From Clostridia bacterium (lineage in GTDB: Bacteria; Bacillota; Clostridia; UBA1212; DUPL01), in NCBI GenBank assembly GCA_050951325.1, contig JBMNIW010000001.1, positions 256,001 to 320,000 of the forward strand: DNA of 64,000 nt, read 5' to 3'. How positions within the stretch are numbered: the stretch's first letter is position 1; each line of letters begins with the position of its first letter. Positions 17,124 through 44,479 of this stretch are shown here, piece after piece. The notes beneath the pieces are model-generated. The model saw only the letters and a list, made by a program, of their open reading frames with translations. It made no database searches and had not been told where the DNA came from. Position numbers and translations under genes: made by a program.

Positions 17124-17228
17124 GCAGTTACCCTCCAATCCAGAAACAGGTATGTTATATGTATAATACATTAAACGGGTGAAATGTTGTAGGTAATATA
17201 TTGTTTTCCATATGTAAATAATTGTGTT

Positions 17229-18479: not shown

Positions 18480-18482
18480 TCT

Positions 18483-20996
18483 TCATCCCTCCTTTTTGTT
18501 TATTCCAATTGCCTTTTTTGCCAAAAATATCACCAAACCGACAAGTATTAAAGCAACAGACCAAACTGCAATCATTACGTAATCCACACTCTTTTTGGAA
18601 GGAAGTTTTCTAAAGTTTTCATCAGTGTTGAATACAAAACAAAACCTCCCACCAGGTGCCACATCGCCAAACTGGTAAAAATCCATAATATCACCATCGG
18701 ACTGCATGTTGTCAGACCATTTGAAGTTAAATGCAATATTCTTCGCTTTGCCGCTTATGCCAAGATACTCTTTTGGCACCTCTATCTGCATAACATTTCC
18801 ACTTACAGTGTACCTGGCCTCGCCGACCTTATCCCAATCCCAACCGCCTTTGCTCCTTTCAACAATTACTTTATCCACTGTTGCATTCTCTCTGTTTATA
18901 CAAAACTCGAAACCTTCCCAATTACCATTACCCTCAAATGTTGTATCAATAAACAGTCTCATCCAGGCTTTATCAGTGTACGGTGTAATATCATCCTTTG
19001 TTTGTGCAAAGAAATATATGTTGTTCTCATCGTACGCAACTTTTGCAAGGACAAAATCATTCCTCATGGTATCATTGGCATCAAACACAGCACCTCTAAA
19101 GCCACCTGCTTCCCTATATGGCGTGGAGCCAGTGTAGTGATGGTATTCAGGAAGAACATCCTTCCACTGTTCCACTCCTTTCGATATGTCAATCTTTTTG
19201 TATGCGTAGATCGAATCGGGCACGCTCATTCCTTTAAACTTTCTAATATTGCTTACCATTTGATAGTAATAGTGGTCTTTCAAGTCACCTTTTGTCATTT
19301 CTATATCACGACTGTTTTCATCATCAAATTGATCAACAAAGGCATTAATCAATTTCACATGGCCTGTGTCAAATTCAGCATATCTATGTACGGTCCACTC
19401 ATTCCAACCCACAATGAATACAATATCAGGGTCAACCTCATGCGCATAATCCCACTGTTCCTGAAAATTCAGACCTTGTAGTTTTGTCTTAGAGATGATG
19501 TTGCCTTCAGTAAAATCATCATCTCCAATCCATCCATTTTTATATGTCCAGCTTCTACCTGTAGGTCTTAGTTTCGGGTCAGTCTGATTCATAGCAGAAA
19601 AACCAGGTAACTCCCTGTTGCCATTTTGGGCAACACTTACTGGCACATACTCTACAGAGCCGTCCTTCCTTACTCCAAATCTACCCTGTGGATGAATTCT
19701 CAGCCACTGCCAGTATCCTATCTCTTCATTATGCTTGTCTGCATAATCGCCACTGTTTGCCCTGAATGTAAACGAATCAAGAAGATATTTGTGTTTTTCA
19801 TTATCCAATATGTTCTTGTTTGCCATGATTAATGGTTTTCCGTCCAAATAAAACCATAGATCCTGGTACAACCCACGAGCGAATATGTCTCTGTACAACA
19901 TGTCAAGCTGTGTACTTAATTCATATTGGCTCCTTGAGTTTAAAAAGAATGCAAACTGCGGAACTTTAACTCCTTCCGACTTGGCCTTCATGAATGCATC
20001 CACAAGGCACAGAAACTGTGCTCTCCAGAGATACGTTGCGTTTGTGCAGTCAAATACAATGAAGTCCACACCTGCATCAGCAAGAAGTTCTGCATGCTTT
20101 CTATAAACAAAAGCATCTGTTCCGGAGTAGTATCCGTACAAAGGCTCATTCCAGTAATATATCACTCTGCTTTGGGACTCAATAGTCGACCACAGTCTAT
20201 GAATTGGATCAAGTCTTGCATCCGGGTATTCTGTCATCAACTTCTGCAGGCTGTATGGAGTTATTGAATTGGAATACTCTTCCTCAAACCATATTGTGTA
20301 GAATATGCCAACCTTTTTATCCTTTAAGTTACCCACATCCTTGTAGGCAGGAAGTATTCTTCCAAGCCCGTCTACTGCAGCCCAGGTATCAGGTCTGACC
20401 TTGTACTCTCTATCATCAACAGGATTGAAATAGTCAAACTCAAGTATGGGCTCGTCACTCTTGTTCTCCGATATCTCACCAAGTTTCTTTCCATTGCCGC
20501 TAATAAATCTTACATACGCAGCAACACCAATAGAAGGCTCTGCCCTGTCATTGTAATAGACTCTTACATTATTGATACTCTTCTCCACTATTTTGATATT
20601 TACCGCTTTACCAGATGCCTTGTTTAAAAGAAGTATGTACTCACCTTTTGGCAGGGTGTCGAACTTGTAAGTTATTTTATTGCCAAAACCTTCAAATGAC
20701 TTCTTGCGAACAGGTTCCTTTCTCAATGTTTTGGCATAAAACTCATCCCACTCATAAATTGACACTGTAAGTTTTCCCTTGCCGTGCTTTCCAGCATTAA
20801 CCTCTATGGTTACTTCGTCAAAATCCTCCGTTGCATTAAACTGTATAGCCAGGTTGTCATGGGAATACAACCTCATTTCATTTACCAGTTTCTCCTTATC
20901 AAACAAGGCAACTTTTTCAGACGCACCATTTGCCACTATTATCCCAAAACCCAGCATTGCTGAAATAATAATTAGACATGCTTTTACAGCCTTCAT
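18483..20996 (-). CDS. GH99/GH71-like putative glycoside hydrolase with extra N-terminal domain and C-terminal TM anchor
   Basis: DGLGR, GIFYTIW, YYWNEPLYGYY, RKHAELLADAGVDF, DCTN, GWNEW, SRDIEM; ATG overlaps fucosidase TGA. Confidence 0.72.
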   Translation of the reverse strand: MKAVKACLIIISAMLGFGIIVANGASEKVALFDKEKLVNEMRLYSHDNLAIQFNATEDFDEVTIEVNAGKHGKGKLTVSIYEWDEFYAKTLRKEPVRKKSFEGFGNKITYKFDTLPKGEYILLLNKASGKAVNIKIVEKSINNVRVYYNDRAEPSIGVAAYVRFISGNGKKLGEISENKSDEPILEFDYFNPVDDREYKVRPDTWAAVDGLGRILPAYKDVGNLKDKKVGIFYTIWFEEEYSNSITPYSLQKLMTEYPDARLDPIHRLWSTIESQSRVIYYWNEPLYGYYSGTDAFVYRKHAELLADAGVDFIVFDCTNATYLWRAQFLCLVDAFMKAKSEGVKVPQFAFFLNSRSQYELSTQLDMLYRDIFARGLYQDLWFYLDGKPLIMANKNILDNEKHKYLLDSFTFRANSGDYADKHNEEIGYWQWLRIHPQGRFGVRKDGSVEYVPVSVAQNGNRELPGFSAMNQTDPKLRPTGRSWTYKNGWIGDDDFTEGNIISKTKLQGLNFQEQWDYAHEVDPDIVFIVGWNEWTVHRYAEFDTGHVKLINAFVDQFDDENSRDIEMTKGDLKDHYYYQMVSNIRKFKGMSVPDSIYAYKKIDISKGVEQWKDVLPEYHHYTGSTPYREAGGFRGAVFDANDTMRNDFVLAKVAYDENNIYFFAQTKDDITPYTDKAWMRLFIDTTFEGNGNWEGFEFCINRENATVDKVIVERSKGGWDWDKVGEARYTVSGNVMQIEVPKEYLGISGKAKNIAFNFKWSDNMQSDGDIMDFYQFGDVAPGGRFCFVFNTDENFRKLPSKKSVDYVMIAVWSVALILVGLVIFLAKKAIGINKKEG

Positions 20997-21970
20997 TGCC
21001 AACCTCCGTTCATTCTTGCCAAATCTTTCAAAACCTGCATTGCAGGTGCTGGAAACCTTCCCAAATGATCAGGCCCAATGTTCAATAAATAATTTGCACC
21101 AATCCTTTTAAGATGTTCTTTTGTTTTAAATACTTCCTCTGCACTTTTCCAGTTGTTATCGTAATATTTAAAACCCCAGGAATCATTCAAGGTTGCTGGA
21201 CTTTCATACAAAACATCCAAAACCTTATCTATAGGTATCTCATTGTCTCCTGCTGATATATAGTCGTAGATGCCATTGCCAAGTCTAGAGTTTACAAGAC
21301 AATCTGGCTGATAATGTTTTACCATGCTGTATAGTTCAAGACTTTTTTCTTTCGATATTACAAGCGGTGTATCAAACCAGATGAGGAACAGCTCTCCATA
21401 GTTTGTGAGTATTTCTTTAAGCTGAGGTTTTATCTTCTCTTCATAGCAAATATCGTAGCATTTGTTTTCATTATCAGGATAATCCCAGTCATTCGTCCAG
21501 GAAGTAGTCCCTTCTAGATTTAAAAAAGGATATCTGTACCCACCGCCATGCGGATGGGACCAATCGATATCCTGTGAATAGTAAAGACCGAGTTTAATGC
21601 CGTGTTTGTAACAGGCTTCAGCAAGTTCACCTACAACATCTCGTCCAAAAGGTGTCATGTCCACCACATTGAATTTTGTTGCTTTGGAATGAAACATAGC
21701 AAATCCATCATGGTGTTTTGAAGTGAAGACCATGTACTTCATGCCCGCTGCTTTTGCAAGTCTTGCATACTCTTCTGCGTTAAAATATATTGGGTTGAAC
21801 ACTTTTACAAGTTCGTGGTATTCCTTGTTAGGTATGCGGAAATATGCCTGTGTCCATTCAGCGATATACGGCATTCTTTGCCCTTTCCACTCCCCACCCA
21901 ATAAAGAATACAATCCAAAATGAATCATAAGACCAAACTGAGCTTCCTTAAAATGTAACCTAACATCCAT
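20993..21970 (-). CDS. Alpha-L-fucosidase, GH29 (catalytic domain only)
   Basis: FGLMIHFGLYS, TSKHHDGF, GLYYS, IWFD nucleophile, LLNIGP. Confidence 0.92.
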   Translation of the reverse strand: MDVRLHFKEAQFGLMIHFGLYSLLGGEWKGQRMPYIAEWTQAYFRIPNKEYHELVKVFNPIYFNAEEYARLAKAAGMKYMVFTSKHHDGFAMFHSKATKFNVVDMTPFGRDVVGELAEACYKHGIKLGLYYSQDIDWSHPHGGGYRYPFLNLEGTTSWTNDWDYPDNENKCYDICYEEKIKPQLKEILTNYGELFLIWFDTPLVISKEKSLELYSMVKHYQPDCLVNSRLGNGIYDYISAGDNEIPIDKVLDVLYESPATLNDSWGFKYYDNNWKSAEEVFKTKEHLKRIGANYLLNIGPDHLGRFPAPAMQVLKDLARMNGGWQ

Positions 21971-22057: not shown

Positions 22058-24092
22058 CCCTAGTTTAACAGTTGATATTTCAATTTAAATTGCATAAATG
22101 CCCTAAATAACGCCAACTTGGCGCCTTTTTTTATGTCAAATAATTTTCATCTTTCTGTTGTATAATGTAGTAGAACATGGTATAATATAACTGATTACTA
22201 TCAGGAGGTGCTGTTGGATGTTTTTGAAAGTTACCAAACTGAAAAACGGCAAAATCAATTTAAGTTTTGTTGAAGGTTATCGTGACCCTGCAACCAAAAA
22301 AGTCAAACATAAGCTGGTTGAGAATTTGGGCTATCTGGATGAATATCTTGATCGTTACGAGGATCCAATAGCGCATTTTAAAGAGATTGCACGCATTCGC
22401 ACCCAGGAACTTAACGAGGAAAAAAGTAAAAAGGAAATATTTCTGGGTACTATTTCTGAAGACGAGACCATGGAAGTGAACGAAGATTCCTTGCAGCACA
22501 TGGGATTCCTTCCTCTAAGCTCAATTTACCATCAGTTAAAAATCGACAAATTCATTATCAATCGTCAACGAAGCCTGTCCATGGATTATTCGCTAAACGA
22601 TGTTATGCAATTGTTGGTGTATACAAGGATTCTATCTCCAGGGTCCAAGATAGACAGTTACAGACAAAAAGAACGTATGGCTAAAGATTTCAAATGTGAT
22701 TGGTATGATGTTTATCGTGCATTGGACTATTTTGCATCTTTTCGAGATGACCTTCTCCTCCATCTTCACGAGCAGGTCAGAATCAACTATCAACGTAAAA
22801 CTGATGTTGGCTTTTATGATGTCACAAACTTTTACTTTGAGATTGATAAAGAGGATGAATTTCGTCGCAAGGGTTATTGCAAGCACAATACACGAAATCC
22901 GCTAGTGCAAATGGGACTGCTTCTTGATTCTGATGCTATTCCAATAGCGTATCAGTTATTTAAAGGGAACACCCATGACAGTCAGACAATGATGCCGCTG
23001 TTGCATAAAATACGTGCCAGTTATGGACTGGGTAGAATAATTACCGTAGCAGACAAAGGATTGAATAGCGGAGACAACATCGCATTTCTCATGGCCAAAG
23101 GAGATGGATTCATATTCTCTCAGAAAATACGGGGAGCTTCCAAAGATCTGCAAGACTATGTTTTTGATCAGTCAGGATATGTAGATGTGCACGGGATAGT
23201 AAAACATGCTGATGCATGGAACGAAAGGAATGGCAACCAGGACAGCGGGGTGTTCCGCATGAAATCGCGACTATATCCACAGGAATTCTGGGTAACTCAT
23301 GCAGATGATGTCAAACGCAAAATACCGTTGGATGTAAAACAGATTGTATGTTACAACGAGCTTTATGCAAGACGCCAGAAGCACAAGAGGGATGAACTTA
23401 TTGCCAAGGCCAAAAGAATCATAGAAAATCCCAAACGCTATGATAAGAGTGAGGCAGGTGGGGCATTACGATATGTAAAAAACATTGAATATGACCCGGA
23501 AACTGGTGAGTACATTAAAACCAGGCGTTTACCCAGCCTGGATGAAGACAGGATTGCGGAAGACGAAAAGTATGATGGCTACTATGCAATCATTACAAGC
23601 GAACTGGATATGCCAGACCATGATGTCGTCAAAGCATATCACGGTCTTTGGGAGATAGAACATAGTTTCAGGATTACTAAAAGCGATATTGAAGCCAGAC
23701 CTGTTAATGTTACACTCGAGCAAAGGATTGATGCCCACTTTCTTACATGTTTCATAGCCTTGCTAGTCTTAAGACTTTTGTGTAAACGACTGGACGGAAA
23801 GTATGCCCCTGAACAGGTAATCAAATCTTTGAGAAATTATCAGGTTTGTTGGATTAAGGACAATGTATACAAGGCAACCTACTATGACCAAATACTAAAA
23901 GATTTGGGTGAGGCTTTGAATTTGAGACTGGATAGACGCTTCCTAAAAGCAGGCGACATCAGGCAACTAATTGCAGATACCAAAAAGTGACCATAAATAC
24001 ACAACATTTTTCTGAAATAAACAAAACCTCACAAACCCACTAATTACAAGGGTTTATGGAGGTTTTTTTTAATTCTAACTGTTAAACTCAAG
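22058..24092 (+). mobile_element. IS1634-family element (copy A)
   Basis: Imperfect 16-bp TIRs CCCTAGTTTAACAGTT / AACTGTTAAACTCAAG around transposase. Confidence 0.8.
22218..23990 (+). CDS. IS1634-family DDE transposase
   Basis: FYDVTNFYF, VQMGL, VADKGL, DGYYAIITS, LWEIEHSFRITK, HFLTCFIAL. Confidence 0.92.
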   Translation: MFLKVTKLKNGKINLSFVEGYRDPATKKVKHKLVENLGYLDEYLDRYEDPIAHFKEIARIRTQELNEEKSKKEIFLGTISEDETMEVNEDSLQHMGFLPLSSIYHQLKIDKFIINRQRSLSMDYSLNDVMQLLVYTRILSPGSKIDSYRQKERMAKDFKCDWYDVYRALDYFASFRDDLLLHLHEQVRINYQRKTDVGFYDVTNFYFEIDKEDEFRRKGYCKHNTRNPLVQMGLLLDSDAIPIAYQLFKGNTHDSQTMMPLLHKIRASYGLGRIITVADKGLNSGDNIAFLMAKGDGFIFSQKIRGASKDLQDYVFDQSGYVDVHGIVKHADAWNERNGNQDSGVFRMKSRLYPQEFWVTHADDVKRKIPLDVKQIVCYNELYARRQKHKRDELIAKAKRIIENPKRYDKSEAGGALRYVKNIEYDPETGEYIKTRRLPSLDEDRIAEDEKYDGYYAIITSELDMPDHDVVKAYHGLWEIEHSFRITKSDIEARPVNVTLEQRIDAHFLTCFIALLVLRLLCKRLDGKYAPEQVIKSLRNYQVCWIKDNVYKATYYDQILKDLGEALNLRLDRRFLKAGDIRQLIADTKK

Positions 24093-24221: not shown

Positions 24222-25286
24222 GTGATGAAGTTGATTTTAAACAAAAACCTAGCAAGATACCTGCAGCCATTAACTGAAGAAGAATTAATATACAAAGAAT
24301 ATTATGAACTTAAGCAAAAGAACGCACCTCTTGAGGAATTCTTTGAATCCATTGCAAACAGGAATGATATAAGGAAAGACTTGTTCATAAAAGAATTGGA
24401 AGGCTCCGGATACTACGAAAAGGTAACGGATATATTCTATCCTTTCGACTACGACATAGTTGCAGCAAGACACACAAGATATCATCCCCTATTCTTACAC
24501 AGACATCCTTTTTATGAGATTGTCTATCAGATTGAGGGTACCTGCACAAATACAATAAACAACATAACAGTAGAGATGACGGAAGGGGACATATGTATAA
24601 TACCTCCAGGACCTGTTCATACCGTTGGTGTTTTTGACAACAGCATAATAGTTAACATACTTGTAAAACCGGAATCAATCACAAACTCGTTACACGAACT
24701 TCTTGCAAGAAACAATATTATAACCAAGTTCTTTGAGGGTAATGAGTTCACATACTCTTACAACTATGCACTGTTCAGGGTAACAAACGACATAGAGTTG
24801 AAAGACATAATGGAGTCGCTGATACTTGAATGTTTCAACAAGGATATTCATACGCTGCCCATGAGAAAGACTCTTCTAATGCTGGCATTCAATCACTTGC
24901 TGAGATACCAGCTTAACAACATGGAGCTTTCCGAGAACAAAAACAAACTGCACACAAAGGTACAAAGCATATGCCAGTATCTCAAGACAAGTTACCAGAC
25001 AACAAACTTAAATGACACTGCAAGGCAGTTCAATTACTCTCCCACATATCTTTGCAAATTAATTAGAAACAGTACCGGACATACCTTCAACGACATATTA
25101 ACCAGGATAAGAATAACCAAAGCTTGCGATCTCCTTGCCACAACAAAAAAGGGCATTAACGATATTGCAGAACTTGTAGGATACGAATCTCCTGAATACT
25201 TCAACAAAGTCTTCAAAAAATACATGGGTGTGTCCGCAACAGAATACAGGAAGGATTACAACATGTCGGTAATAAAGAATATGTAG
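24222..25286 (+). CDS. AraC-family transcriptional regulator
   Basis: HRHPFYEI cupin motif; IAELVGYESPEYFNKVFKK. Confidence 0.93.
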   Translation: MMKLILNKNLARYLQPLTEEELIYKEYYELKQKNAPLEEFFESIANRNDIRKDLFIKELEGSGYYEKVTDIFYPFDYDIVAARHTRYHPLFLHRHPFYEIVYQIEGTCTNTINNITVEMTEGDICIIPPGPVHTVGVFDNSIIVNILVKPESITNSLHELLARNNIITKFFEGNEFTYSYNYALFRVTNDIELKDIMESLILECFNKDIHTLPMRKTLLMLAFNHLLRYQLNNMELSENKNKLHTKVQSICQYLKTSYQTTNLNDTARQFNYSPTYLCKLIRNSTGHTFNDILTRIRITKACDLLATTKKGINDIAELVGYESPEYFNKVFKKYMGVSATEYRKDYNMSVIKNM

Positions 25287-25325: not shown

Positions 25326-26210
25326 CTATCTGTATTTAATAACTACCTCGTCAACAATTGTCTTTGCAAAGTGGTTGAACAGTTTCAAAACACCCGTTTG
25401 GTCTTTTAGATTGTTTGCTGCCTTGTATATTTCATTGCCCTCGCCATCGTAAACAATTAGTTCGTCACCAACCATGTCAACGTGCATGAATAGTTCATCA
25501 TCTGCATAGTAGTATACAAGCCCGTTTGCATCAACGATTGTAAGTTTGTGTGTTTCCTTGAAACTAACCGGAACGTTTATCTTGCATGCTCCCTTTGGCC
25601 AGTGTGCTGGTACCCCATGATAGAGAACCAGTTCATTACTCTCAGTAACCGATAGATACAAACCACTATCCAAATCAGAAGGCTTGTAATCTTCGCCGCC
25701 AGGCTCATACACCCTTATACCTACAATGCATCCCATCCATACTTCCTGGTGAGAATCAGGATATGAGGTTTGAAAAGTTATGTGGTACTCATACTGGCTA
25801 ATAGTCTCATCAAAGTCACAGTATACCCCAGGCGCATAAGTTTGGGCTGCATCGAACCATTCATCAGTAGTTCCAATGTAGCTGAGGTAGAGCCTGTCAT
25901 CTATGATGCCATAATATTTTTGGTATCTCACAATGGCTTCAGGGCTGTACTGACCATCTTCAAAGTTATCTTCGAAAACCACGATAGCATCTTCTTGAGG
26001 TTTTCCAAGCTGGCTTTCATCAAGCTTTGGTAAACTTTCTGTAGGTTCGGGAGTCTCTTCAGGCTCCTTGGTGGTTGTAACTTCTTTAGTTTCAGAAGGA
26101 GTATTCTGCGGCTCCTTCGTTGTACCGGGTGTGTTTTGCTTGTTGCAGCTAATAAACACAAGAGACACCATTCCAATCAATATTAAAAGCAAAATACGTT
26201 TTATCCTCAT
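25326..26210 (-). CDS. Lipoprotein with uncharacterised locus-specific beta domain
   Basis: Lipobox FISC, Thr/Pro linker; WMGCIVGIRV, SGLYL, YHG..WPKGA, NNLKDQTG, FNH motifs shared with 28059, 31311, 32945. Confidence 0.8.
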   Translation of the reverse strand: MRIKRILLLILIGMVSLVFISCNKQNTPGTTKEPQNTPSETKEVTTTKEPEETPEPTESLPKLDESQLGKPQEDAIVVFEDNFEDGQYSPEAIVRYQKYYGIIDDRLYLSYIGTTDEWFDAAQTYAPGVYCDFDETISQYEYHITFQTSYPDSHQEVWMGCIVGIRVYEPGGEDYKPSDLDSGLYLSVTESNELVLYHGVPAHWPKGACKINVPVSFKETHKLTIVDANGLVYYYADDELFMHVDMVGDELIVYDGEGNEIYKAANNLKDQTGVLKLFNHFAKTIVDEVVIKYR

Positions 26211-26227: not shown

Positions 26228-28057
26228 TCAGTTCACGAAAACATAGTTAAGTCTTCCGTAAGGTGCGGTATCGCCATCGAGATAGAAGGACCAGAAATCT
26301 CCTTCTCCCTGATAGTTGTCGCTCCACTTGAACTCAATGTTTATTTCACTTCCAATGTCCAAACCAAGTGCATTCTTTGGAATTGAGAACATAAGCTTGT
26401 TACCTTCTGCCTTGTACTCAATTTCGGATACCTTTTCCCAATCCCAACCGCCTTTGCATTTCTCAACAACAGTTTTAGTATTGGAAAGAATCTGACGATT
26501 TATAACAAAGTCATATCCGTACCAATTGTCTTCGTTGTTTCCCGTTTTAATAAACAGGTTCATCCAATGTTCGTCCGTATACGGACTCAAAGGCTCTTTG
26601 GTTTCAACATAGAAATATACATTCTCACCATCATGTGTAACCTTGCTAAGTACAATATCGTTTCTACCCGTTTCATTGACATATACAATTTTTCCAAATC
26701 CTCTTGCATTTCTATGCATGGTGTCTCCAGCATAATCAACGTATGAAGTCCCAATATCGTCCCACTGGGAAAAATCCCCCTTTATGTCCACACTTGAGTG
26801 TGTAATTTCCTTGTTTTCCTCAAGCTCCTTGTTATTTACCTGCGCAGCACCCTTGAACTTTCGGATATAGTAGATTAGCTGCATATAGTAGTTGTCACCG
26901 TATCCGCCTTTCATGGGCTGAATATCTCTTGAGTAATTGGCAGTGGCTGCATCAACAAAAATAGCCACATCATTGTACCTCTGTTCGGTGACATCGTACC
27001 ACTCATTAAGTCTATAAGCTATCCACTCATTCCATCCTGTTACAAAGATAATATCAGGATCCACGCTTATAGCGTATTCGAACTGTTCAGCAAAGTTGTA
27101 TCCATGCAAGTACGCATCTTCGGATTTATCTTCCTTGCCATTATGGAAGCTTCTGCTTCTAACAGTTTCGTCACCGTGGAAAGCTCCGTTTGAGAACGCA
27201 AGCGAACCTGTATGCTGTGCCACCGATACACTAATTATCGTAGTACCAAGCTCCTTGCCAAAAAGATGCTGGGGACGTTCAAAAGCCATCCAGGGAAAAC
27301 CGTCTTCCCTTTTCGCTTCCCTTGGCCATTGTGAATACCTGATTGTAAAGAACTCTTTAAATTCGTCGGTAAAGGCAGGGTCATCAGTCTTGCCCAGAAT
27401 CAAAGGCTTTCCATCCAATTCAAACCACAAATGGCTGTACTCACTATGAGCTTTATATATCTCATTGAAAATCTCCATCATGTGGGTTCCCGGATTATGC
27501 TTTGTAACAAATGCCACCTTCGGTACCTTATAACCTTGCTTATAAAATTCGTCCAACACTTCGAGCAAGACAAGTACATGTTCTTTGTATGTTGCGCCAT
27601 TTGACGAATCAAGTATGAGAAAATCAACACCTGCATCCGTTAAAAGCATGACATCCCTTTGCTTTACCCATTTGTCGGATCCTCTGAAATAGCCAAATAT
27701 GGATTCTCCCCACCAGTGAATTGTATTAACAGCGCCTCCACCTGCATTAATCCAGCGCTCGTCGGATTTAAAAGCTTCTGGGTCCTTCTCAAGAATTTTT
27801 GAAATATCATAAGGTCCTTGTGTTGTTTTTCCACCGTGGTTGATAAAATAGAACATGCCAACCAGTTTGTCCTTGTTGTATTCAGGTATATCCTTGTCCG
27901 CAGGCATGCCCAACACTCTGCCAAGATCGTCAACTCCGGCGTAAGCCAGCATACCACCATCACTTTTATTATCTATCAAATCATTATCCTCCTTGTTGCA
28001 TCCAATCAAGGCAGCCAATAATATAAATGCTGCTATAAACGTTACAATTCTTTTCAT
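26228..28057 (-). CDS. GH99/GH71-like putative glycoside hydrolase, lipoprotein
   Basis: Lipobox LIGC; DDLGR, HWWGESIFGYF, DAGVDF, DSSN, GWNEW, SRDIQP; paralog of 14302 and 18483. Confidence 0.72.
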   Translation of the reverse strand: MKRIVTFIAAFILLAALIGCNKEDNDLIDNKSDGGMLAYAGVDDLGRVLGMPADKDIPEYNKDKLVGMFYFINHGGKTTQGPYDISKILEKDPEAFKSDERWINAGGGAVNTIHWWGESIFGYFRGSDKWVKQRDVMLLTDAGVDFLILDSSNGATYKEHVLVLLEVLDEFYKQGYKVPKVAFVTKHNPGTHMMEIFNEIYKAHSEYSHLWFELDGKPLILGKTDDPAFTDEFKEFFTIRYSQWPREAKREDGFPWMAFERPQHLFGKELGTTIISVSVAQHTGSLAFSNGAFHGDETVRSRSFHNGKEDKSEDAYLHGYNFAEQFEYAISVDPDIIFVTGWNEWIAYRLNEWYDVTEQRYNDVAIFVDAATANYSRDIQPMKGGYGDNYYMQLIYYIRKFKGAAQVNNKELEENKEITHSSVDIKGDFSQWDDIGTSYVDYAGDTMHRNARGFGKIVYVNETGRNDIVLSKVTHDGENVYFYVETKEPLSPYTDEHWMNLFIKTGNNEDNWYGYDFVINRQILSNTKTVVEKCKGGWDWEKVSEIEYKAEGNKLMFSIPKNALGLDIGSEINIEFKWSDNYQGEGDFWSFYLDGDTAPYGRLNYVFVN

Positions 28058-28058
28058 C

Positions 28059-28949
28059 CTAACACCTTTCACTTACATTTTTTAAACGCATGAATACTGC
28101 AAAAAGTACAAAAGCTGCAATTATCATGGACAAAACAGCCATGAAAGAGTTGTCACCTGTTTCAGGATTTCCAGGCTCCGGCTCCGGAGCAGTAGCCACA
28201 TTGTAGATTTCAATGGAGTCAACTATGGTTTTTGTACTGTGATTGAATATCTTGAAATATCCAACCTGGTCTTTCAAATTGTTGTCGGCTTCATAGATAA
28301 CATTGCTGTCCTTGTCATAAGCAACAAGTTTGTCTCCTGAAATTTTTATGCTCAAGAACAACACTCTGGTTTCTTCTGGTGTATCCATGTAATACGAGAT
28401 TATATCATTGTCATCAACAATGTAAAGGGTATTGGTCTCTGCAAAGTTAGCCGGAATGTCAACAGTAAAAGCTCCTCCAGGCCAGCCACCGCCTCCATGA
28501 TAGACAACAGCCTTGTTGGTGTGGGCAATTCCTATATACAGTCCAGAGTTGGAATCCGCTGGCTTGAAATTGTTTTTGTCGTTGCCTGCAACCCTAATAC
28601 CCACCATGCATGAATACCAAAGGTCATTTCTGAAACCGTTACTCTTGAATTTGACAACATACTCATATTTCTCATGCTCCTCGTCAAACTCAAACTTTTC
28701 GTTGGCAATATATGCTTCAGCAGCATCTCCCCAGTCATTGTCGTTGGTGTTGAAGCCCATATAAAGCTGTTCATTCTCAATCTTGTGCCAAGCATTAAAG
28801 CGGAAAATAGCTTTAGGATTTGCCTGGTTGCCTGAAAAGTCATCAACATATATCAAATCTTTGGATGATGATGCTGTCACACCATTTGTAAATGCAAAAA
28901 ACATAACAAGAACAAGCATATAAAAAACAATATTTTTAGATTTAAACAT
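28059..28949 (-). CDS. Sortase-type (NPETG) surface protein with locus-specific beta domain
   Basis: Signal peptide; PEPEPG-NPETGD + hydrophobic helix + basic residues. Confidence 0.8.
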   Translation of the reverse strand: MFKSKNIVFYMLVLVMFFAFTNGVTASSSKDLIYVDDFSGNQANPKAIFRFNAWHKIENEQLYMGFNTNDNDWGDAAEAYIANEKFEFDEEHEKYEYVVKFKSNGFRNDLWYSCMVGIRVAGNDKNNFKPADSNSGLYIGIAHTNKAVVYHGGGGWPGGAFTVDIPANFAETNTLYIVDDNDIISYYMDTPEETRVLFLSIKISGDKLVAYDKDSNVIYEADNNLKDQVGYFKIFNHSTKTIVDSIEIYNVATAPEPEPGNPETGDNSFMAVLSMIIAAFVLFAVFMRLKNVSERC

Positions 28950-28972
28950 ATCTATTTCTCCCCTTTTGAATA

Positions 28973-29224
28973 AACTGCTATAAGATTAACAAAAAGCAAA
29001 TCGCTTGTCTTCTGATATATTGAGTGTATTTTAGATATATTGACATTTCTTTTAATATTCTGTATCATTAAAAACATCTACAGCGAATATGGATGTGAAA
29101 AATATGTCAGAAAACACTAATTCAGGCTATATTATGTACGTATCAAACGCCAAATCAGATACAAACCAGATATTCAATATATCTAAACCCAAGGAAATCT
29201 TCAGATTCAGACACGCCCATGCCT
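28973..29224 (+). repeat. 252-bp direct repeat, copy 1 (promoter + 5' fragment of the AraC gene)
   Basis: Aligns without gaps to 31195..31446 (14 mismatches counted by eye). Confidence 0.95.
29014..29043. promoter_or_regulatory. GATATATTGA-N10-GATATATTGA candidate AraC operator
   Basis: Direct repeat with 20-bp period; also at 31236 and 34304. Confidence 0.65.
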
Positions 29225-31194
29225 CGATAGTTTGACACTTGCTCACATATCCGATTTTCAGAAAAGCTCATAATATGAGCTTTTTTTATATATTTTTTGT
29301 CAAATTTCCCTAGTTAGCTATTGCGTAATGTCTCGTAATGTGATATAATATCAGGTATTGGAGGTGTCATTATGGCTATTAGAGTATCAATATCTAAATC
29401 AAAAAATGCCAAGTCATACTATCTGATAGAAGATGTTGTGAAAAATGGAAAGAGAACAACGCAGATAAGAGAAAAACTTGGCACTCATGAGGAACTGCTT
29501 AAAGAACTTAACGGACAAGATCCGTATGAATGGGCTAAGAAATACGCCGAGGAACTAAATAGAAAAGAAAAAGAAAACGAACAGGAAAAGAATATTATCG
29601 TTAAGTATTCCCCCACCAAGCAAATTATGAAGAATAAACAGAATACATTTAATGGCGGTTACCTGTTCTTGCAGAAAATCTATTATGAACTGGGTTTGCA
29701 TAAGATTTGCGATGAAATATCTGAAAAATACAAGTTTGAATATGACTTGAACTCAATACTCTCGAGACTACTATACAGTAGAATAATATACCCTTCCTCA
29801 AAACTATCTACGTATAAATTATCAAAAAGATTTTTTGAGCAGCCCAATTTTGACTTGCATCATATATACCGGGCCTTAAGTGTTTTGGCGGAAGAAAATG
29901 ATTTCATACAAGCCACAATCTATGAGAACAGTAAAAAAATATGCAATAGAAATACCAAAATACTATACTACGACTGTACAAACTATTATTTTGAAATTGA
30001 TTACGAGGAAGATGACAAGAGGTATGGTTATGGGAAGGGTCATAAGCCAAATCCCATAGTGCAAATGGGACTGTTCATGGACGGAAGCGGCATCCCTCTT
30101 GCTTTTAGCATCAATAGAGGTAATGCCAATGAACAAACAACAATGGTACCACTGGAAGAAAAGATACTATCTGACTTTAATCTGGCAAAATTTATTGTTT
30201 GTACAGATGCCGGATTGTCATCAACAGCAAACCGGAAATTCAACGACAAAGGCGACAGGGCTTTTATCACAACCCAGTCTGTAAAAAAACTAAAAGAACA
30301 CTTGAAAAACTGGGCCTTGAAACCGACGGGATGGAGTTTGCCAAATGACAGTACAGAATATGACATCAGCAAACTTGATGAAGAAGAATACAAGGACAAG
30401 GTTTTTTACAAAGATCGTTGGATTAAGGAAGACGGTTTGGAACAGAAACTAATAGTGACATTTTCATTCAAGTACAGAAAATATCAACAGCAAAAGCGCC
30501 AAGTTCATATCGAAAAGGCATTAAGCTTGCTTGAAACAGAACCGCAAAAATCAAACAAGAAGCGAAACAGCGACTACAAACGTTTTATCAAAAGCGTTAA
30601 TTGCACAGAAAGTGGAGAGATAGCCGATAATGAAGTTTATTATATTGACGAAGAACTTATTGCCAACGAGCAGAAATATGATGGGTTCTATGCGGTATGC
30701 ACAAACCTTGATGATGATGCTTCAGAAATTGCAAAAATCAACCATAGACGCTGGGAAATAGAAGAATGTTTTAGAATAATGAAAAGTGAGTTCAAAGCCA
30801 GACCTGTTCATTTGAAAGACAAGGATAGGATACTTGCACATTTTGCTACATGTTTTATGGCATTAATTCTGTATAGAATACTCGAGAAAAGACTTGAAGA
30901 AAAATATACATGCTGTGAAATTATTCAGTGTTTGAGAGATATGAATTTTACAGACGAAAATGGGTATGGATACAAACCTTGTTATACAAGAACCGACTTG
31001 ACTGATGATTTGCATAACGTTTTCGGATTCAGGACTGACTATGAAATAATTACAGAGAAAGAGATGAAAAAAATATTCAAGCTCACTAAAAAGTAAAAAC
31101 ATTACGCATTTTTATTGACACATCAAGAAGTCTACAAACCCACTAAATACAAGGGTTTGTAGACTTTTATCTTTCTACAAGTGTCAAAGATGAG
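29225..31194 (+). mobile_element. IS1634-family element (copy B)
   Basis: TIRs CGATAGTTTGACACTTG / CAAGTGTCAAAGATGAG; bounded exactly by the 252-bp repeat. Confidence 0.88.
29372..31096 (+). CDS. IS1634-family DDE transposase
   Basis: YYDCTNYYF, VQMGL, CTDAGL, DGFYAVCTN, RWEIEECFRIMK; TTGCGT-17-TATAAT promoter at 29321-29349. Confidence 0.92.
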   Translation: MAIRVSISKSKNAKSYYLIEDVVKNGKRTTQIREKLGTHEELLKELNGQDPYEWAKKYAEELNRKEKENEQEKNIIVKYSPTKQIMKNKQNTFNGGYLFLQKIYYELGLHKICDEISEKYKFEYDLNSILSRLLYSRIIYPSSKLSTYKLSKRFFEQPNFDLHHIYRALSVLAEENDFIQATIYENSKKICNRNTKILYYDCTNYYFEIDYEEDDKRYGYGKGHKPNPIVQMGLFMDGSGIPLAFSINRGNANEQTTMVPLEEKILSDFNLAKFIVCTDAGLSSTANRKFNDKGDRAFITTQSVKKLKEHLKNWALKPTGWSLPNDSTEYDISKLDEEEYKDKVFYKDRWIKEDGLEQKLIVTFSFKYRKYQQQKRQVHIEKALSLLETEPQKSNKKRNSDYKRFIKSVNCTESGEIADNEVYYIDEELIANEQKYDGFYAVCTNLDDDASEIAKINHRRWEIEECFRIMKSEFKARPVHLKDKDRILAHFATCFMALILYRILEKRLEEKYTCCEIIQCLRDMNFTDENGYGYKPCYTRTDLTDDLHNVFGFRTDYEIITEKEMKKIFKLTKK

Positions 31195-31446
31195 AACTGC
31201 TATAAGATTAACAAAAAGCAAATCGCTTGTCTTCTGATATATTGAGTGTATTTTAGATATATTGACATTTCTTTTAATATTCTGTATTATTTAAAACATC
31301 TACAGCGAATATGGATGTGAAAATTATGTCAGAAAACTCTAACTCCGGCTATATTTTATACGTATCAAACGCCAAATCAGATACAAGCCAAATAATCAAT
31401 ATATCTAAACCTCAGGAAATCTTCAGATTCAGACACGCCCACGCCT
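31195..31446 (+). repeat. 252-bp direct repeat, copy 2
   Basis: See 28973..29224. Confidence 0.95.
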
Positions 31447-32828
31447 TCATAGACAACAAGCTGTATCTTTGTCATAAGTTCGGTACCTGGCAGAAGAACG
31501 CAGAAACTTTCACACCGGATTGCTACTGTGAAGCAGAAAAAGGCAGAACGGAATACATATATAGAATCAACTTTTCAGTACAAGACTCCATGCCGTATCA
31601 TAACATAAAATACAAGTGGACTGCTTGTTTCATAGGAGCAAGAGTCTCTTCGCCCCATGGAGATGAAGCAAACCCATTGCATAAAGACTGCGGCTTTTAC
31701 ATAGCTATAGGCGACAGCAATAAAGCTGTAATATACCACGGCAAGGAGAGAACCTGGCCTCATGGCTGTTGTACAGTAAAACTTCCTGAAAACTTTTCAA
31801 CACCGCATACATTAATAGTAACTGATGACGGTGAAACTATTACCTATTCCATGATACTTTCCACAGGAGAAGAGAGAAATATTCTCAAAGCTTGCCTATC
31901 GGGCGAAGATATTCTTGTTTACGACAGCGGAAACAATCTTGTGTACAAGGAAAAAAACAATCTCAGAAACCGCAAGGGTGGCTACTTCAAGGTATTCAAC
32001 CACGAAGCCCAGACAATCATATCCTCTGTAAGCATACATAACAAAGAACTTAAAACAGGATGTCTGAAGATGGTATACAAAGACAGTTTTTCATCTTTTC
32101 GTACCAGTGAGGGCTTTAAACTTTTCTACATAACTCAAGGAGAAAGCAACTGCCTCATAAACCAGAACCTGTTGTCCCTCGAAAAAGACGACATTTTACT
32201 GATTTCGGCTTACGATACATATTTAATGAACGAAAACATGCCCATGACAAAGGTGCAGTTCAACAAGGAATTTTTATACAGATACTTCAGTCACGATGTG
32301 GTGGACAATGTGCTTACGTGCTTTAACAACAAGCAAATACGATTAAAAGGTGAAAAACTCTCGCTAATAAGGACAAAACTGCAGAATCTTAAAGAGTCTG
32401 AAAATGAGGATGACAGAATACCGGCCTTCATTCATCTGTATGAGATTCTGTTCTTGCTGTCAAGAGAGAAAAAGGGAGTTATTAGGGATGCAAGTCACAA
32501 CCCATATGTGTACAAAATTATTAACTACATAAATAAATATTACTCCACAATTTTTACTGTCGATGACATCGCAGAATATTGTGGAGTATCAAAACATCAT
32601 TTATGTCGTGTATTTAAAGAGAATATGAATATGACCATAATTTCATTCCTTAATCAAGCAAAAGTAAACAATGCATGCAAGGAACTTGTTGAAACGGATA
32701 ATCAAATCCTGCAGATTGCACTCAATAACGGTTTCAATTCAGCCTCCTACTTCAATTATGTATTTAAAAAGCAGACAGGTATATCACCGATTGAGTACAG
32801 GAACATACATACAAAGAAATCTAAATAA
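31311..32828 (+). CDS. AraC-family regulator with N-terminal locus-specific beta domain
   Basis: aa ~14-245 align with the surface proteins; then cupin-like region and HTH IALNNGFNSASYFNYVFKK; no signal peptide. Confidence 0.9.
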   Translation: MDVKIMSENSNSGYILYVSNAKSDTSQIINISKPQEIFRFRHAHAFIDNKLYLCHKFGTWQKNAETFTPDCYCEAEKGRTEYIYRINFSVQDSMPYHNIKYKWTACFIGARVSSPHGDEANPLHKDCGFYIAIGDSNKAVIYHGKERTWPHGCCTVKLPENFSTPHTLIVTDDGETITYSMILSTGEERNILKACLSGEDILVYDSGNNLVYKEKNNLRNRKGGYFKVFNHEAQTIISSVSIHNKELKTGCLKMVYKDSFSSFRTSEGFKLFYITQGESNCLINQNLLSLEKDDILLISAYDTYLMNENMPMTKVQFNKEFLYRYFSHDVVDNVLTCFNNKQIRLKGEKLSLIRTKLQNLKESENEDDRIPAFIHLYEILFLLSREKKGVIRDASHNPYVYKIINYINKYYSTIFTVDDIAEYCGVSKHHLCRVFKENMNMTIISFLNQAKVNNACKELVETDNQILQIALNNGFNSASYFNYVFKKQTGISPIEYRNIHTKKSK

Positions 32829-32934
32829 GGTCTTCGAAGTCAACACCTATGAAATCCAGACCACTTACTGTAACTTCCTCTTCCGTTTCAAATATCACAA
32901 CATCCATTTGCGGATCCTCGTATATCTTTTTCAT
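32821..32934 (-). CDS. 37-aa acidic peptide MKKIYEDPQMDVVIFETEEEVTVSGLDFIGVDFEDLI (not in ORF track)
   Basis: TAAGGAGGAGCTT-ATG: strong RBS fused to the upstream stop codon; YxxP leader-like motif. Confidence 0.75.
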   Translation of the reverse strand: MKKIYEDPQMDVVIFETEEEVTVSGLDFIGVDFEDLI

Positions 32935-32944
32935 AAGCTCCTCC

Positions 32945-34240
32945 TTACTCAAACCATGACCTTACAGCCGGATCAAGGCTGTCTGCTTCGTTGTTTTCAA
33001 CTATTTCCTGGTATACCCTTGAAAGCGAATTCTCCTGAACAGAGGTATATAAATAAATTATATTTCCATCGGAATCTTCACATTCAAGCCATACTCTCGC
33101 CAGAATAATTGTTTCCTTTGCAGTATCAGGTATGTTATATATGTAAATGGATTTGTACATATTACCATTCACATCAACATCAATCATCTCCGGCTGTGCA
33201 ACCAATCCATCAATCTTGCCAACCTGTTCCAAAACCATTATATTTGGATCTGACAATTTATCTTTCAGTATGACAAGTCCACCTAAATCTTTGACAGTGT
33301 ACTCTTTACCCTCATAGTCAAATACTTCACCAACACCCATTACATCAAAGCAGAATCTCAGACCCTGTCTCAAATCACTATCTACTATCTCGCCACTTTT
33401 GGTTCTGAAGGGTACCAGTGTTGATCTTATCTGGGAACCTGAATATGATGCAGCTGCTTCCGGAGCAGTTGGAACAGAATCATCCACACTGTATATCTCT
33501 ATGGAATCAACAATGGTTTTTGTACTATGGCTGAAAATCTTAAAGTACCCCGTCTGCCCCTTCAGATTGTTTGCCGCTTCATAAATAACATTGTCGTCCT
33601 TATCATATGCAGTAAGCATGTCTCCCGATATTTTAATTGACAGAAACAACACCCTGGGTTCTTCAGGTGTATCCATGTAGTACCTGACAGTGTCATTGTC
33701 ATCAACTATGTAAAGTGTATTAGTCTCCGCAAAGTTGGCTGGAATGTCAATACTAAAAGCTCCTCCAGGCCAACCGCCACTACCATGATAGACAACTGCT
33801 TTATTGGTGTGGGCAATTCCTACATACAGTCCAGAGTTGGCATCTCCTGGTTTAAAATCGTTCTTGTCGTTACCTGCAACCCTAATGCCTACCATGCATG
33901 AGTACCAAAGGTCATTTCTAAAGCCATTACTGTTGAATTTGACTACATACTCATATTTCTTATTCTCTTCATCAAAATCCAACCTTTGGTTTGCAATATA
34001 TGCTTCAGCAGCTTCTCCCCAGTCGTTGTCATTGATGTTAAAACCCATATACAATTGCTCATTTTCTATCTTGTGCCATGCATTAAAACGGAATATTGCC
34101 TTTGGATTGGCTTTATTATCCTCAAACCCATCACAATACACCAGTGTTTTTGTTGACGAGGCAGTTATGCCGCTTGTCAAACTGAATAATATAGCCAGGA
34201 TTAAAACAAATATGATAGTCTTCTTCCCTTTTACAAACAT
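32945..34240 (-). CDS. Secreted protein: locus-specific beta domain + C-terminal GSQIR...GLRF domain
   Basis: N-terminal ~250 aa closely similar to 28059..28949; C-terminus unrelated, without TM or sortase signal. Confidence 0.82.
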   Translation of the reverse strand: MFVKGKKTIIFVLILAILFSLTSGITASSTKTLVYCDGFEDNKANPKAIFRFNAWHKIENEQLYMGFNINDNDWGEAAEAYIANQRLDFDEENKKYEYVVKFNSNGFRNDLWYSCMVGIRVAGNDKNDFKPGDANSGLYVGIAHTNKAVVYHGSGGWPGGAFSIDIPANFAETNTLYIVDDNDTVRYYMDTPEEPRVLFLSIKISGDMLTAYDKDDNVIYEAANNLKGQTGYFKIFSHSTKTIVDSIEIYSVDDSVPTAPEAAASYSGSQIRSTLVPFRTKSGEIVDSDLRQGLRFCFDVMGVGEVFDYEGKEYTVKDLGGLVILKDKLSDPNIMVLEQVGKIDGLVAQPEMIDVDVNGNMYKSIYIYNIPDTAKETIILARVWLECEDSDGNIIYLYTSVQENSLSRVYQEIVENNEADSLDPAVRSWFE

Positions 34241-34303
34241 ATCCAAATCTCTCCTTTTTATCTGGTAAGCAAAGATTATCAAAAAGATTTCTATGTGTCT
34301 TCT

Positions 34304-34333
34304 GATATATTGAGGGAGATTTAGATATATTGA
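34304..34333. promoter_or_regulatory. GATATATTGA-N10-GATATATTGA candidate AraC operator
   Basis: Boxes identical to 29014 while the spacer differs. Confidence 0.65.
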
Positions 34334-43483: not shown

Positions 43484-43508
43484 AGGCTCTTCCCCCAAGA
43501 GCCTTTAT
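43481..43508. terminator. Bidirectional terminator
   Basis: TAAAGGCTCTT-cccc-AAGAGCCTTTA. Confidence 0.75.
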
Positions 43509-44479
43509 TCATATCCTTTATACATATCCATTACATACTTTGTCAAGTTGAAATCATTATCTGGATACTCAAAACAAAGTTTAACTGCAACTTCTTTTGA
43601 AACCTCACGAAAAAGATCGAGACATGTAAACAAAGAGTTCCAGCAGTTTTCATACGTATCCATTCTATATGTTGTCATAAGTCTGTTCCACAAACCATCA
43701 GAAACATACCTTTTCAAATATTTATAGTTCTTACCGACACTAAGAGAAAAGTGCGTTTCAAGACCTACCTTCCAGGACATCATCCTCAAAAGCTCCCGCC
43801 TCACTATACCAAGATGAGCTATTGAATAAAGTATTTCCCTTCGCATAAGTCCTTTAACAACATATGTGGACACATGCCAGAACTCATTGCAGCAGTCATC
43901 AAACTGCCTCATGGTAGGTTTCCTAATATGATACTCCTCATCCGTTGGTATAATCTTCTCCTTTATCCTGTTATCCTTGTCAAGAAGCACCGTTACAAGC
44001 TTGTCTCTTTTCAAATACTCCTCAAGACAATTCAAGGGAATCAAAGTAAGGTCCACTTTATTGTAGTCGTCAAACAGCATAAGATAGGAAAAACCCAATT
44101 CAGAAGGAGGAAACAGCTCCATATCCTCAGGCTTGGTTACCTCATCCACAAATTCGGAGTTGTAAAACAAGGTGGGTTTACCTTCGTACACTTTCAAAGA
44201 AAAAGGAGTTTCCAAATCCTGAACATATTTAAGCAGTTTTAAATTGTCCCAGGACAGTATTCCTGTTAAATACTGAAGATGAAAACTCATATCAGTAAGC
44301 TGTACAATTGTGCCATCAGATAAAAACATTGAGTTGCACATAAGAGGATTTATACCCAACCTATGTGTTTTGGAAAACTTCTTGTATACCTCTTTTGATA
44401 CCTTGACTCCTTTACTGACAACAAGGCATTTCAAATCTATCGAGTCAATCTCACAATTGTTTATGTAATATTTGTTCAA
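43505..44479 (-). CDS. Chimeric ORF: unrelated N-terminus fused to C-terminal part of aminoglycoside 6-adenylyltransferase (AadE/Ant(6))
   Basis: From KPEDMELFPP: FSYLMLFDDYNKVDLTL, VLLDKD, FDDCCNEFW, GKNYK; Ant(6) N-terminal GSR/DxD motifs missing. Confidence 0.8.
   Translation of the reverse strand: MNKYYINNCEIDSIDLKCLVVSKGVKVSKEVYKKFSKTHRLGINPLMCNSMFLSDGTIVQLTDMSFHLQYLTGILSWDNLKLLKYVQDLETPFSLKVYEGKPTLFYNSEFVDEVTKPEDMELFPPSELGFSYLMLFDDYNKVDLTLIPLNCLEEYLKRDKLVTVLLDKDNRIKEKIIPTDEEYHIRKPTMRQFDDCCNEFWHVSTYVVKGLMRREILYSIAHLGIVRRELLRMMSWKVGLETHFSLSVGKNYKYLKRYVSDGLWNRLMTTYRMDTYENCWNSLFTCLDLFREVSKEVAVKLCFEYPDNDFNLTKYVMDMYKGYE

Follow-up and report, generated by a model that had tools for sequence, protein, structure and literature searches.

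A lectin-like domain shared between an AraC-family regulator and neighbouring exported proteins of a Clostridia bacterium

The DNA considered here (hereafter the window) is a stretch of 64,000 nucleotides (nt) from a Clostridia bacterium (GTDB lineage Clostridia; UBA1212; DUPL01), corresponding to positions 256,001 to 320,000 of contig JBMNIW010000001.1 in assembly GCA_050951325.1. It holds, at 31311..32828 on the plus strand, a gene for an AraC-family regulator of 505 amino acids (aa), or of 500 aa when translation is taken to start at Met6, as most gene callers do. The product is a cytoplasmic protein of three modules: an extra N-terminal ConA-like jelly-roll domain (aa 14-246; 31350..32048, +), an AraC-type regulatory domain made of seven cupin-like barrel strands and helices (aa 252-389; 32064..32477, +), and a double helix-turn-helix (HTH) DNA-binding domain (aa 397-504; 32499..32822, +). 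The first of these modules is homologous to the exported domain of three proteins encoded nearby on the minus strand, which are named here by the lower coordinate of their genes. The 28059 protein (28059..28949; 296 aa) is an exported single-domain protein in which the domain follows a signal peptide and is joined by a P/E-rich linker to a hydrophobic anchor at the C-terminus; the 25326 protein (25326..26210; 294 aa) is a lipoprotein in which a lipobox Cys and a P/T/E-rich linker precede the domain; and the exported 32945 protein (32945..34282) consists of the domain followed by a C-terminal part of about 180 aa that is unassigned. The true start of the latter is probably the ATG at 34240, the listed TTG lying 14 codons too early. 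Its extra C-terminal residues (about 180; 32945-33484, -) have no family match, and at the same place its paralogue, the 28059 protein, has the P/E-rich linker and hydrophobic anchor. Between the 28059 and 25326 genes lies the gene of a 614-aa lipoprotein with weak GH99 likeness (26228..28072, -), a recurring partner of the domain.

The relationship between the regulator and its exported neighbours had been proposed in an earlier reading of the letters alone (the original prediction), according to which the N-terminal part of the AraC protein is colinear with the exported domain of the 25326, 28059 and 32945 proteins. This has been borne out by a MAFFT alignment of the four window proteins, which is colinear over AraC residues ~14-245, has 46 invariant columns and recovers all the motifs quoted in that prediction. 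In BLASTP comparisons, the regulator matched the 28059 protein with 115 bits (E 1e-33, 34% identity over 221 aa) and the 25326 protein with 134 bits (E 4e-40, 33% identity over 212 aa), so that, at the level of sequence, the similarity is far beyond chance. The absence of a signal peptide in the AraC protein was also upheld: within its first 45 aa the best 12-aa Kyte-Doolittle mean is 0.16 and its N-terminus is thus not hydrophobic, whereas the same measure reaches 2.97-3.36, i.e., signal peptides, in the three neighbours. In addition, all nine AraC fusions with this domain that are described below are devoid of a membrane segment (best 19-aa Kyte-Doolittle mean 0.71-1.54).

The remainder of the regulator is that of a member of the AraC/XylS family. 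Pfam HTH_18 was matched at residues 420-498 (E 2.3e-20) and HTH_AraC with an E-value of 8.2e-19, and an NCBIfam AraC model aligns to residues 268-503, AraC-type models in general starting at about residue 260. An AlphaFold model of the full-length protein (pLDDT 86, pTM 0.62) shows three modules, whose mutual placement is unsure because of the low pTM. Residues 397-505 were matched by the HTH structures 3oou (Z 15.9, root-mean-square deviation (rmsd) 1.2 A, 105 residues aligned), 3oio (Z 15.8) and AdpA 3w6v (Z 15.5); the regulatory domain by RhaR 5u93 (Z 15.1, 145/160 residues aligned), AraC 1xja (Z 13.1) and the lactose sensor BgaR 6nwh (Z 13.0); and residues 32-250 by lectins. None of the 50 structural matches listed was a solved chain spanning both the first module and the AraC core. 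The jelly-roll domain has thus been added ahead of a complete AraC regulator in which the cupin was kept. The original prediction had described this portion as a normal cupin-like plus HTH part, which holds for the HTH and for the AraC-type fold; the word normal is less suited to the cupin region, where Pfam AraC_binding was not detected at the sequence level. Moreover, the cupin motif H-x-H-x(2,3)-[YFH]-E is present in 57 of 71 unfused relatives with an alignable cupin and in none (0/6) of the N-terminal fusions. In species-representative genomes, the unfused relatives nearest to the fusions are AraC proteins of the ordinary kind, 253-327 aa long (median 276).

The nature of the N-terminal domain has been approached through its fold. 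No Pfam or NCBIfam match was obtained for the four window copies even at E-values up to 1, nor did the domain match any PDB sequence; a deeper profile (A3) reached PDB through its AraC columns only. From an alignment of 40 sequences, AraC residues 1-250 were modelled with AlphaFold2 as an all-beta structure of 18 strands (mean pLDDT 86, pTM 0.86), which was compared with 48,161 PDB representatives (VIA-align wide). The best structural match was the carbohydrate-recognition domain of ERGIC-53 (Z 14.3, rmsd 3.1 A, 179 residues), followed by CBM66 of Bacillus subtilis (4b1m; Z 14.2, 163/165 residues aligned), VIP36 (Z 14.1), Emp47p (Z 13.2) and the DUF1080 protein BT3469 (4jqt; Z 13.2), and then, at Z ~12-13, by legume lectins, GH16 enzymes, more DUF1080 proteins and PL7 lyases, with SPRY/B30.2 chains also found at Z ~12. 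A total of 179 chains reached Z >= 8, and the top 50 rows (Z 11.1-14.3) are nearly all ConA-like lectins, carbohydrate-binding modules (CBMs), GH16, PL7 or SPRY. In the model, the fold of the domain is thus securely ConA-like, in agreement with the lectin/ConA-like module that had been predicted, while the sub-family is left undecided by the structure because the top matches tie within about 1 Z. A remote sequence kinship is suggested by hhalign, with which an alignment of 58 domain sequences was paired with 18 PF06439 regions taken from genomes of the window's own order (Prob 93.4, E 2.5e-7, 177 columns), a second comparison of 40 against 13 sequences giving Prob 91.6 and E 8.2e-7. As controls, a reversed template and 20 column shuffles gave Prob <= 0.3, and a real unrelated beta-sandwich family (F5/8 type C) gave 0.5. 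The Pfam HMM of PF06439 itself matched neither the four window copies (E up to 1) nor 65 relatives (E up to 1e-4). A PF06439-type profile built here retrieves levanase CBM66 chains from PDB. In passages of PMC8715580 that cite Cuskin et al. (2012), CBM66 is described as binding fructans. The protein-language-model neighbours of the domain are also ConA-like, namely PelX_N (PF25849, the best), 3keto-disac_hyd, GH32_C, GH59_C lectin and DUF1961, and are taken as leads only. The domain is a probable distant relative of PF06439/CBM66, while the threshold set for PF06439 excludes it from that family. Between the AraC-borne copies and their sister secreted copies, 22 positions hold an identical conserved residue, among them W103, G109, R111, H143, W149, D172, D205 and H231.

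The domain is rare. A profile (hidden Markov model, HMM) of the four window copies, the construction of which had been suggested with the original prediction, was run with HMMER against 1,835,955,588 representative proteins and gave 65 matches at E <= 0.001 (42 at E <= 1e-10 and 14 at E <= 1e-30), whose database entries are unnamed or 'hypothetical protein'. Fifty of the 65 proteins are without any Pfam family at E up to 1e-4, and in 13 of the remaining 15 the Pfam families fall outside the matched stretch; the co-occurring families are AraC HTH (carried by six of the 65), Cu_amine_oxidN1, dockerin, ricin-B, CE2_N, and FIMAH/Big_2 with a weak GH99 match. P0036 and P0050 (SLH/fn3) are repetitive proteins in which the placement of the domain relative to those families is ambiguous. 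The window genome, the sole representative of its family, consists of 12 contigs (3.08 Mb) and has 14 domain genes, the most in its order, in which 20 of 45 genomes have a domain match (E up to 1e-5). The claim that the domain is located outside the cell in its non-regulator copies is supported by the signal peptides found in 48 of 59 rows with a near-complete domain, mostly in the form of a lipobox Cys followed by a P/T-rich linker. The 11 rows without a signal peptide are the nine AraC fusions, P0005 and P0012. The protein P0005 (250 aa, from a public assembly) is the closest relative of the AraC-borne domain, with 62% identity, and stops just past it; judged from its sequence, it could be a cytoplasmic copy that stands alone or the product of a truncated fusion gene. 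P0012 (226 aa) is probably a fragment.

Two types of fusion have been found between this domain and AraC proteins. Full-length N-terminal fusions number six (the window protein, P0007, P0011, P0014, P0018 and P0019); they align end to end, with 25-41% identity to the window protein, and the mean identity among them is similar for the domain (31%) and the cupin region (32%), lowest for the helical linker (21%) and highest for the HTH (42%). The 90% cluster of the window regulator has 11 members, of which 10 are full-length, with 13 variable columns out of 505. Another N-terminal fusion exists in the window genome at positions 185967-187458 (-) of contig C8 (L013:10967-12458), where one extra T in a T-run splits it into open reading frames (ORFs) of 128 and 375 aa. 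In a near-identical metagenome contig (L113:6900-8407) this T-run is intact and a frameshift lies further downstream; the two frameshifts sit at different places, so that each assembly is intact where the other is broken. This second gene adjoins a domain lipoprotein of its own and a 627-aa GH99-like gene. In the other type of fusion, represented by P0038, G025 and partly G027, the domain follows the cupin and the HTH. For example, the 557-aa protein of G025 has AraC_binding at 32-98, HTH at 214-289 and the domain at 324-554, and its gene is divergent from an operon that codes for a domain lipoprotein, an unknown protein of 396 aa and a GH99-like protein of 404 aa, the whole locus lying at L116:4613-9874 (contig C6).

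In a maximum-likelihood tree of 58 domain copies, the N-terminal fusion copies (seven genes) form one clade (SH-aLRT 98), whose sister group (support 81) holds the three exported neighbours of the window and the C8 lipoprotein. The C-terminal fusion copies group apart from them, in a clade of their own (support 100) that adjoins lipoproteins combining the domain with the GH99-like enzyme in one chain. A single origin of all AraC-borne copies, a group defined after inspection of the tree, was rejected (delta lnL 70.4, p-AU 2.5e-109). AraC regulators have gained this domain twice independently, once N-terminally and once C-terminally, and these two acquisitions argue that the combination has been selected for. 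The N-terminal fusion is old and conserved. Several searches have addressed how common such regulators are. Among the 80 best AraC loci obtained from species-representative genomes with the full-length fusion alignment, by an HTH-derived pattern, none (0/80) carries the domain, contrary to what would be expected of a family already common in AraC proteins. A word-indexed homologue search with the AraC N-terminus returned its own cluster only, and one with an alignment of the six fusion N-termini returned two proteins, this method being nearly blind in both cases; and a metagenome scan with another alignment (A2) returned four loci, all near-identical to the window genome.

The recurrent partner of the domain, the 614-aa lipoprotein, probably belongs to an uncharacterised glycoside hydrolase family. 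It has no Pfam match (the cut-off of PF16317/GH99 is not reached) and no PDB sequence match; its relatives give sub-threshold PF16317 matches (25.5-33.2 bits versus a cut-off of 33), and some database relatives bear a precomputed PF16317 label. The family comprises at least 4974 clusters at E up to 1e-10, with members unnamed or 'hypothetical', some of them fused to F5/8 type C or dockerin modules and some in anaerobic-digester bacteria. The 614-aa protein is 56% identical to the product of the gene adjoining the C8 domain lipoprotein, and shares 35% identity with the GH99-like enzyme portion of an 861-aa protein (C1:55736-58321, L020:9736-12321, +), in which a distant copy of the domain comes first and a hydrophobic anchor is found at the C-terminus. 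Proteins encoded beside domain lipoproteins in G043 and G025 are 34% and 26% identical to it, respectively, and have sub-threshold GH99 matches as well, and domain-plus-enzyme fusions are known from other organisms (P0031, P0044 and P0066). From this recurrent adjacency and these fusions, it follows that the domain would act as an accessory module or a separately encoded companion of the enzyme.

A candidate operator has been found in front of the regulator gene and of genes for its exported neighbours. The 10-mer GATATATTGA occurs in eight exact copies in the window, where 0.33 would be expected, and none of 100 shuffles reached eight. Six of these copies make up three tandem GATATATTGA-N10-GATATATTGA pairs, 20 nt from start to start, all on the plus strand: one at 31236-31265 (half-sites at 31236/31256), upstream of the regulator gene; one at 29014-29043 (29014/29034), in a duplicated copy of the same promoter that faces the 28059-26228-25326 operon, about 65 nt upstream of it; and one at 34304..34333 (34304/34324), about 65 nt ahead of the point where the 32945 gene probably starts. 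At this third pair the half-sites are identical and the flanks have diverged; in fact, TGTCTTCTGATATATTGAG and TTTAGATATATTG stay identical there despite the diverged flanks. The other two copies of the 10-mer are inverted, one at 31396..31405 (-) inside the coding region of the regulator and one at 29174. In the whole genome (3.08 Mb), 44 exact single 10-mers were counted, and a search for tandem pairs allowing <= 1 mismatch per half-site and a spacing of 19-22 nt gave three only, all in this locus. The best promoter-like sites of the region, TTGACA-N17-TATCAT and TTGACA-N17-TATTAT (the latter at 31262-31290, +), point at the regulator gene, and the second half-site overlaps their -35 element. 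Two direct repeats that are two helical turns apart and overlap the -35 element are a typical site of AraC-type activators, and the candidate operator is similar to it, with two direct repeats 20 nt apart overlapping the -35 element.

The locus shows traces of rearrangement. An IS4-like insertion sequence (IS) with inverted ends lies at 29225..31195 (+; DDE transposase ORF at 29372-31096), immediately upstream of the regulator region; it is multi-copy in two DNA runs, where it is covered about 10 times as deeply as the adjoining sequence and contigs stop at its borders. It is flanked by a 257-nt direct repeat (~95% identical; 28971-29229 and 31195-31453), the left copy of which corresponds to a second promoter/operator copy and the first ~46 codons of the regulator (28971..29229, +; ATG at 29090; ~95% identical), which is cut short by the IS and reads away from the 28059 operon. 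This truncated 5' duplicate is without independent confirmation because no contig bridges 29034-29225. The possibility that the fusion gene itself is an assembly artefact was ruled out by its 11-member 90% cluster, which comes from several sources, and single DNA contigs of two runs, spanning 31227-32972 and 31227-32648, also speak against it. The stretch occurs in anaerobic-digester and bioreactor metagenome contigs from 15 studies. Low-depth contigs from two RNA libraries cover parts of the regulator, 32945 and 614-aa protein genes; these are not counted as evidence of expression because DNA carry-over is possible.

What the domain does in the regulator can be approached from these data. It is proposed, with a confidence that we would call evenly divided, that the lectin-like domain is the cytoplasmic glycan sensor of an AraC regulator that controls the surface apparatus encoded around it. 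The regulator would bind as a dimer to the tandem direct repeat, and its lectin-like domain would bind, in the cytoplasm, an oligosaccharide related to the glycan that is handled outside by the surface proteins and the GH99-like enzyme; ligand binding would then alter the activity of the AraC core, the surface genes would be switched on, and the regulator would presumably autoregulate its own gene. In evolutionary terms, an extracellular carbohydrate-binding module would have been exapted as a cytoplasmic effector sensor. The broader version, in which a carbohydrate-binding module was twice turned into a cytoplasmic AraC sensor that recognises a fragment of the glycan captured and cut outside, is put forward tentatively and given somewhat less than an even chance.

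Several observations weigh against the glycan-sensor proposal. There is no sugar transporter for entry of the ligand in the 64-kb window or in the C8 locus, and the operon could be controlled by the product of an ordinary AraC gene located beside it (24222-25286). Conservation of the operator is a weak indication of selection because the copies are paralogous and two of them are ~95% identical overall, and no comparable tandem or inverted operator-like repeat is convincing in the C8 or G025 loci. The link with PF06439 depends on the depth of the alignment, since Prob is as low as 5.6 with a profile of 4 sequences and 15.1 with one of the eight AraC-borne copies, and the structural matches do not discriminate between binding and catalysis because lectins, CBMs, GH16 and PL7 tie within 1 Z. 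The locus is also in flux, with the IS and the truncated duplicate adjoining the regulator gene, and the second N-terminal fusion is frameshifted both in the genome and, at another place, in the metagenome contig. Finally, the AraC regulatory domain is structurally intact and could be the sole effector site.

This last point is the basis of the main rival explanation, in which the effector is sensed by an ordinary AraC cupin and the lectin-like domain has an accessory task, such as higher-order oligomerisation, DNA looping between the tandem site and the inverted 10-mer inside the gene, or the perception of a second signal. The full AraC/RhaR/BgaR-like fold of the regulatory domain (Z 13.0-15.1) favours it, and so does the Pfam-detectable AraC_binding domain retained in the C-terminal type of fusion. 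Looping would find a place in the inverted third 10-mer located ~130 nt downstream of the tandem site, and ConA-like folds also serve protein-protein contacts, as in the SPRY/B30.2 rows at Z ~12. However, the N-terminal fusions all lack the histidine-containing motif that most of their unfused relatives keep in the cupin, and AraC_binding escapes detection in the same region; furthermore, as the two acquisitions were each made from an enzyme-associated lineage of the domain, a shared ligand specificity explains them more easily than a generic role in oligomerisation. An accessory role is for these reasons possible but rather unlikely.

Another explanation is that the domain is catalytic (a DUF1080-type 3-keto-glycoside lyase/hydrolase, or GH16- or PL7-like) and the regulator a trigger enzyme, so that cytoplasmic sugar turnover would control DNA binding and the surface copies would be enzymes and not binders. 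In favour of this explanation, the nearest sequence family, PF06439, is named 3-keto-disaccharide hydrolase, GH16 and PL7 enzymes appear at Z 12-13, and invariant polar residues (R111, H143, D172, D205 and H231) are common to cytoplasmic and secreted copies. Nevertheless, the top structural matches are non-catalytic lectins and CBM66, and the domain is found appended to a separate putative catalytic module, and together with dockerin, SLH and ricin modules, which is the usual pattern of a binding module. Both the trigger-enzyme idea and the surface copies as enzymes that it entails are considered improbable. More improbable still, to the point of being very hard to sustain, is that the fusion is a neutral or decaying by-product of rearrangement in an IS-rich locus with a functionless domain, as the IS and truncated 5' duplicate immediately upstream and the frameshifted second fusion gene of the genome could suggest, given that six full-length proteins retain the architecture at 25-41% identity to the window protein, that the domain is conserved as much as the cupin region, that 13 of 505 columns vary in the 10 full-length members of the 90% cluster, that the two frameshifts leave each assembly intact where the other is broken, and that a second, independent fusion type exists. 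The trigger-enzyme and neutral-decay explanations are thus less likely, and cupin sensing stands as the main rival of the glycan sensor.

Comparison with known systems helps to place the regulator. It resembles AraC, RhaR/RhaS and BgaR in the C-terminal double HTH and the cupin/helical regulatory domain, and differs from AraC, RhaR and BgaR in the extra 230-aa jelly roll ahead of a complete regulator and in a cupin without the motif common to its relatives. The domain shares the ConA-like fold with CBM66, the C-terminal module of the Bacillus subtilis exo-levanase SacC, and with PF06439/DUF1080 proteins (4jqt, and 3imm and 3hbk at Z 12.4-12.7), the latter being also linked by the profile comparisons (Prob 91.6-93.4%), although identity to both is only 8-12% in profile and structural alignments, with no Pfam match. 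The partners also differ, since the domain is found with the GH99-like enzyme and AraC regulators and CBM66 with GH32. L-type lectins (ERGIC-53, VIP36, Emp47p and legume lectins) are the best or tied-best structural matches (Z 13.2-14.3, 179-190 residues aligned), but identity is 4-12% and the sequences themselves give no signal, so that the resemblance is confined to the fold, and these are eukaryotic cargo receptors. Another point of comparison is offered by the RsgI anti-sigma factors of cellulolytic clostridia, membrane-bound proteins with CBM-like sensor modules that sense polysaccharide outside the cell and act via a sigma factor. As in RsgI, the regulator borrows a carbohydrate-binding module of the kind used by its target enzymes; unlike RsgI, the AraC fusions have no membrane segment and are predicted to bind DNA directly.

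AraC regulators are among the commonest sugar-responsive activators. To our knowledge, there is no described AraC regulator with a lectin/CBM-type sensor shared with surface proteins probably under its control, and no description of an AraC regulator with a lectin/CBM-type module was found in the open-access papers and preprints searched. The architecture is rare and, as the original prediction had supposed, apparently undescribed; no Pfam or NCBIfam model covers the domain and its members are unnamed. If the glycan-sensor proposal is true, the sharing of the domain would match the specificities of capture, cleavage and induction, and the soluble domain of the regulator could reveal the specificity of an uncharacterised enzyme family with thousands of members. 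The locus is a compact test system, in which a soluble domain of 250 aa can be combined with a defined candidate operator and with three promoters as candidate targets, and gives a handle on two uncharacterised families, i.e., a rare ConA-like module (65 representative clusters) and the very large GH99-like enzyme family. Use as a biosensor part is also conceivable for a regulator that responds to a glycan and has a modular binding domain.

Other features of the window deserve mention. Insertion sequences abound in the region: another IS4-like DDE transposase is encoded at 22218-23990 (+), and an IS21-like pair, a Mu-transposase-like ORF and IstB, at 1-1904 (+). At 14302-21002 (-) there are four consecutive ORFs of 641, 314, 416 and 839 aa with no credible Pfam family; with an E-value limit of 0.01, three of them gave no match, and the ORF of 416 aa gave a sub-threshold one to DUF4690 (E 0.0092). 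They are flanked by an ordinary AraC gene and a GH2 beta-galactosidase gene on one side and a GH29 alpha-L-fucosidase gene on the other, and this gene context suggests that the four ORFs may be another unannotated glycan-utilisation cluster. Finally, the ORF at 43505-44479 (-) matches Pfam Adenyl_transf, the streptomycin adenylyltransferase family (E 2.1e-75), and adjoins a Fic-domain gene.

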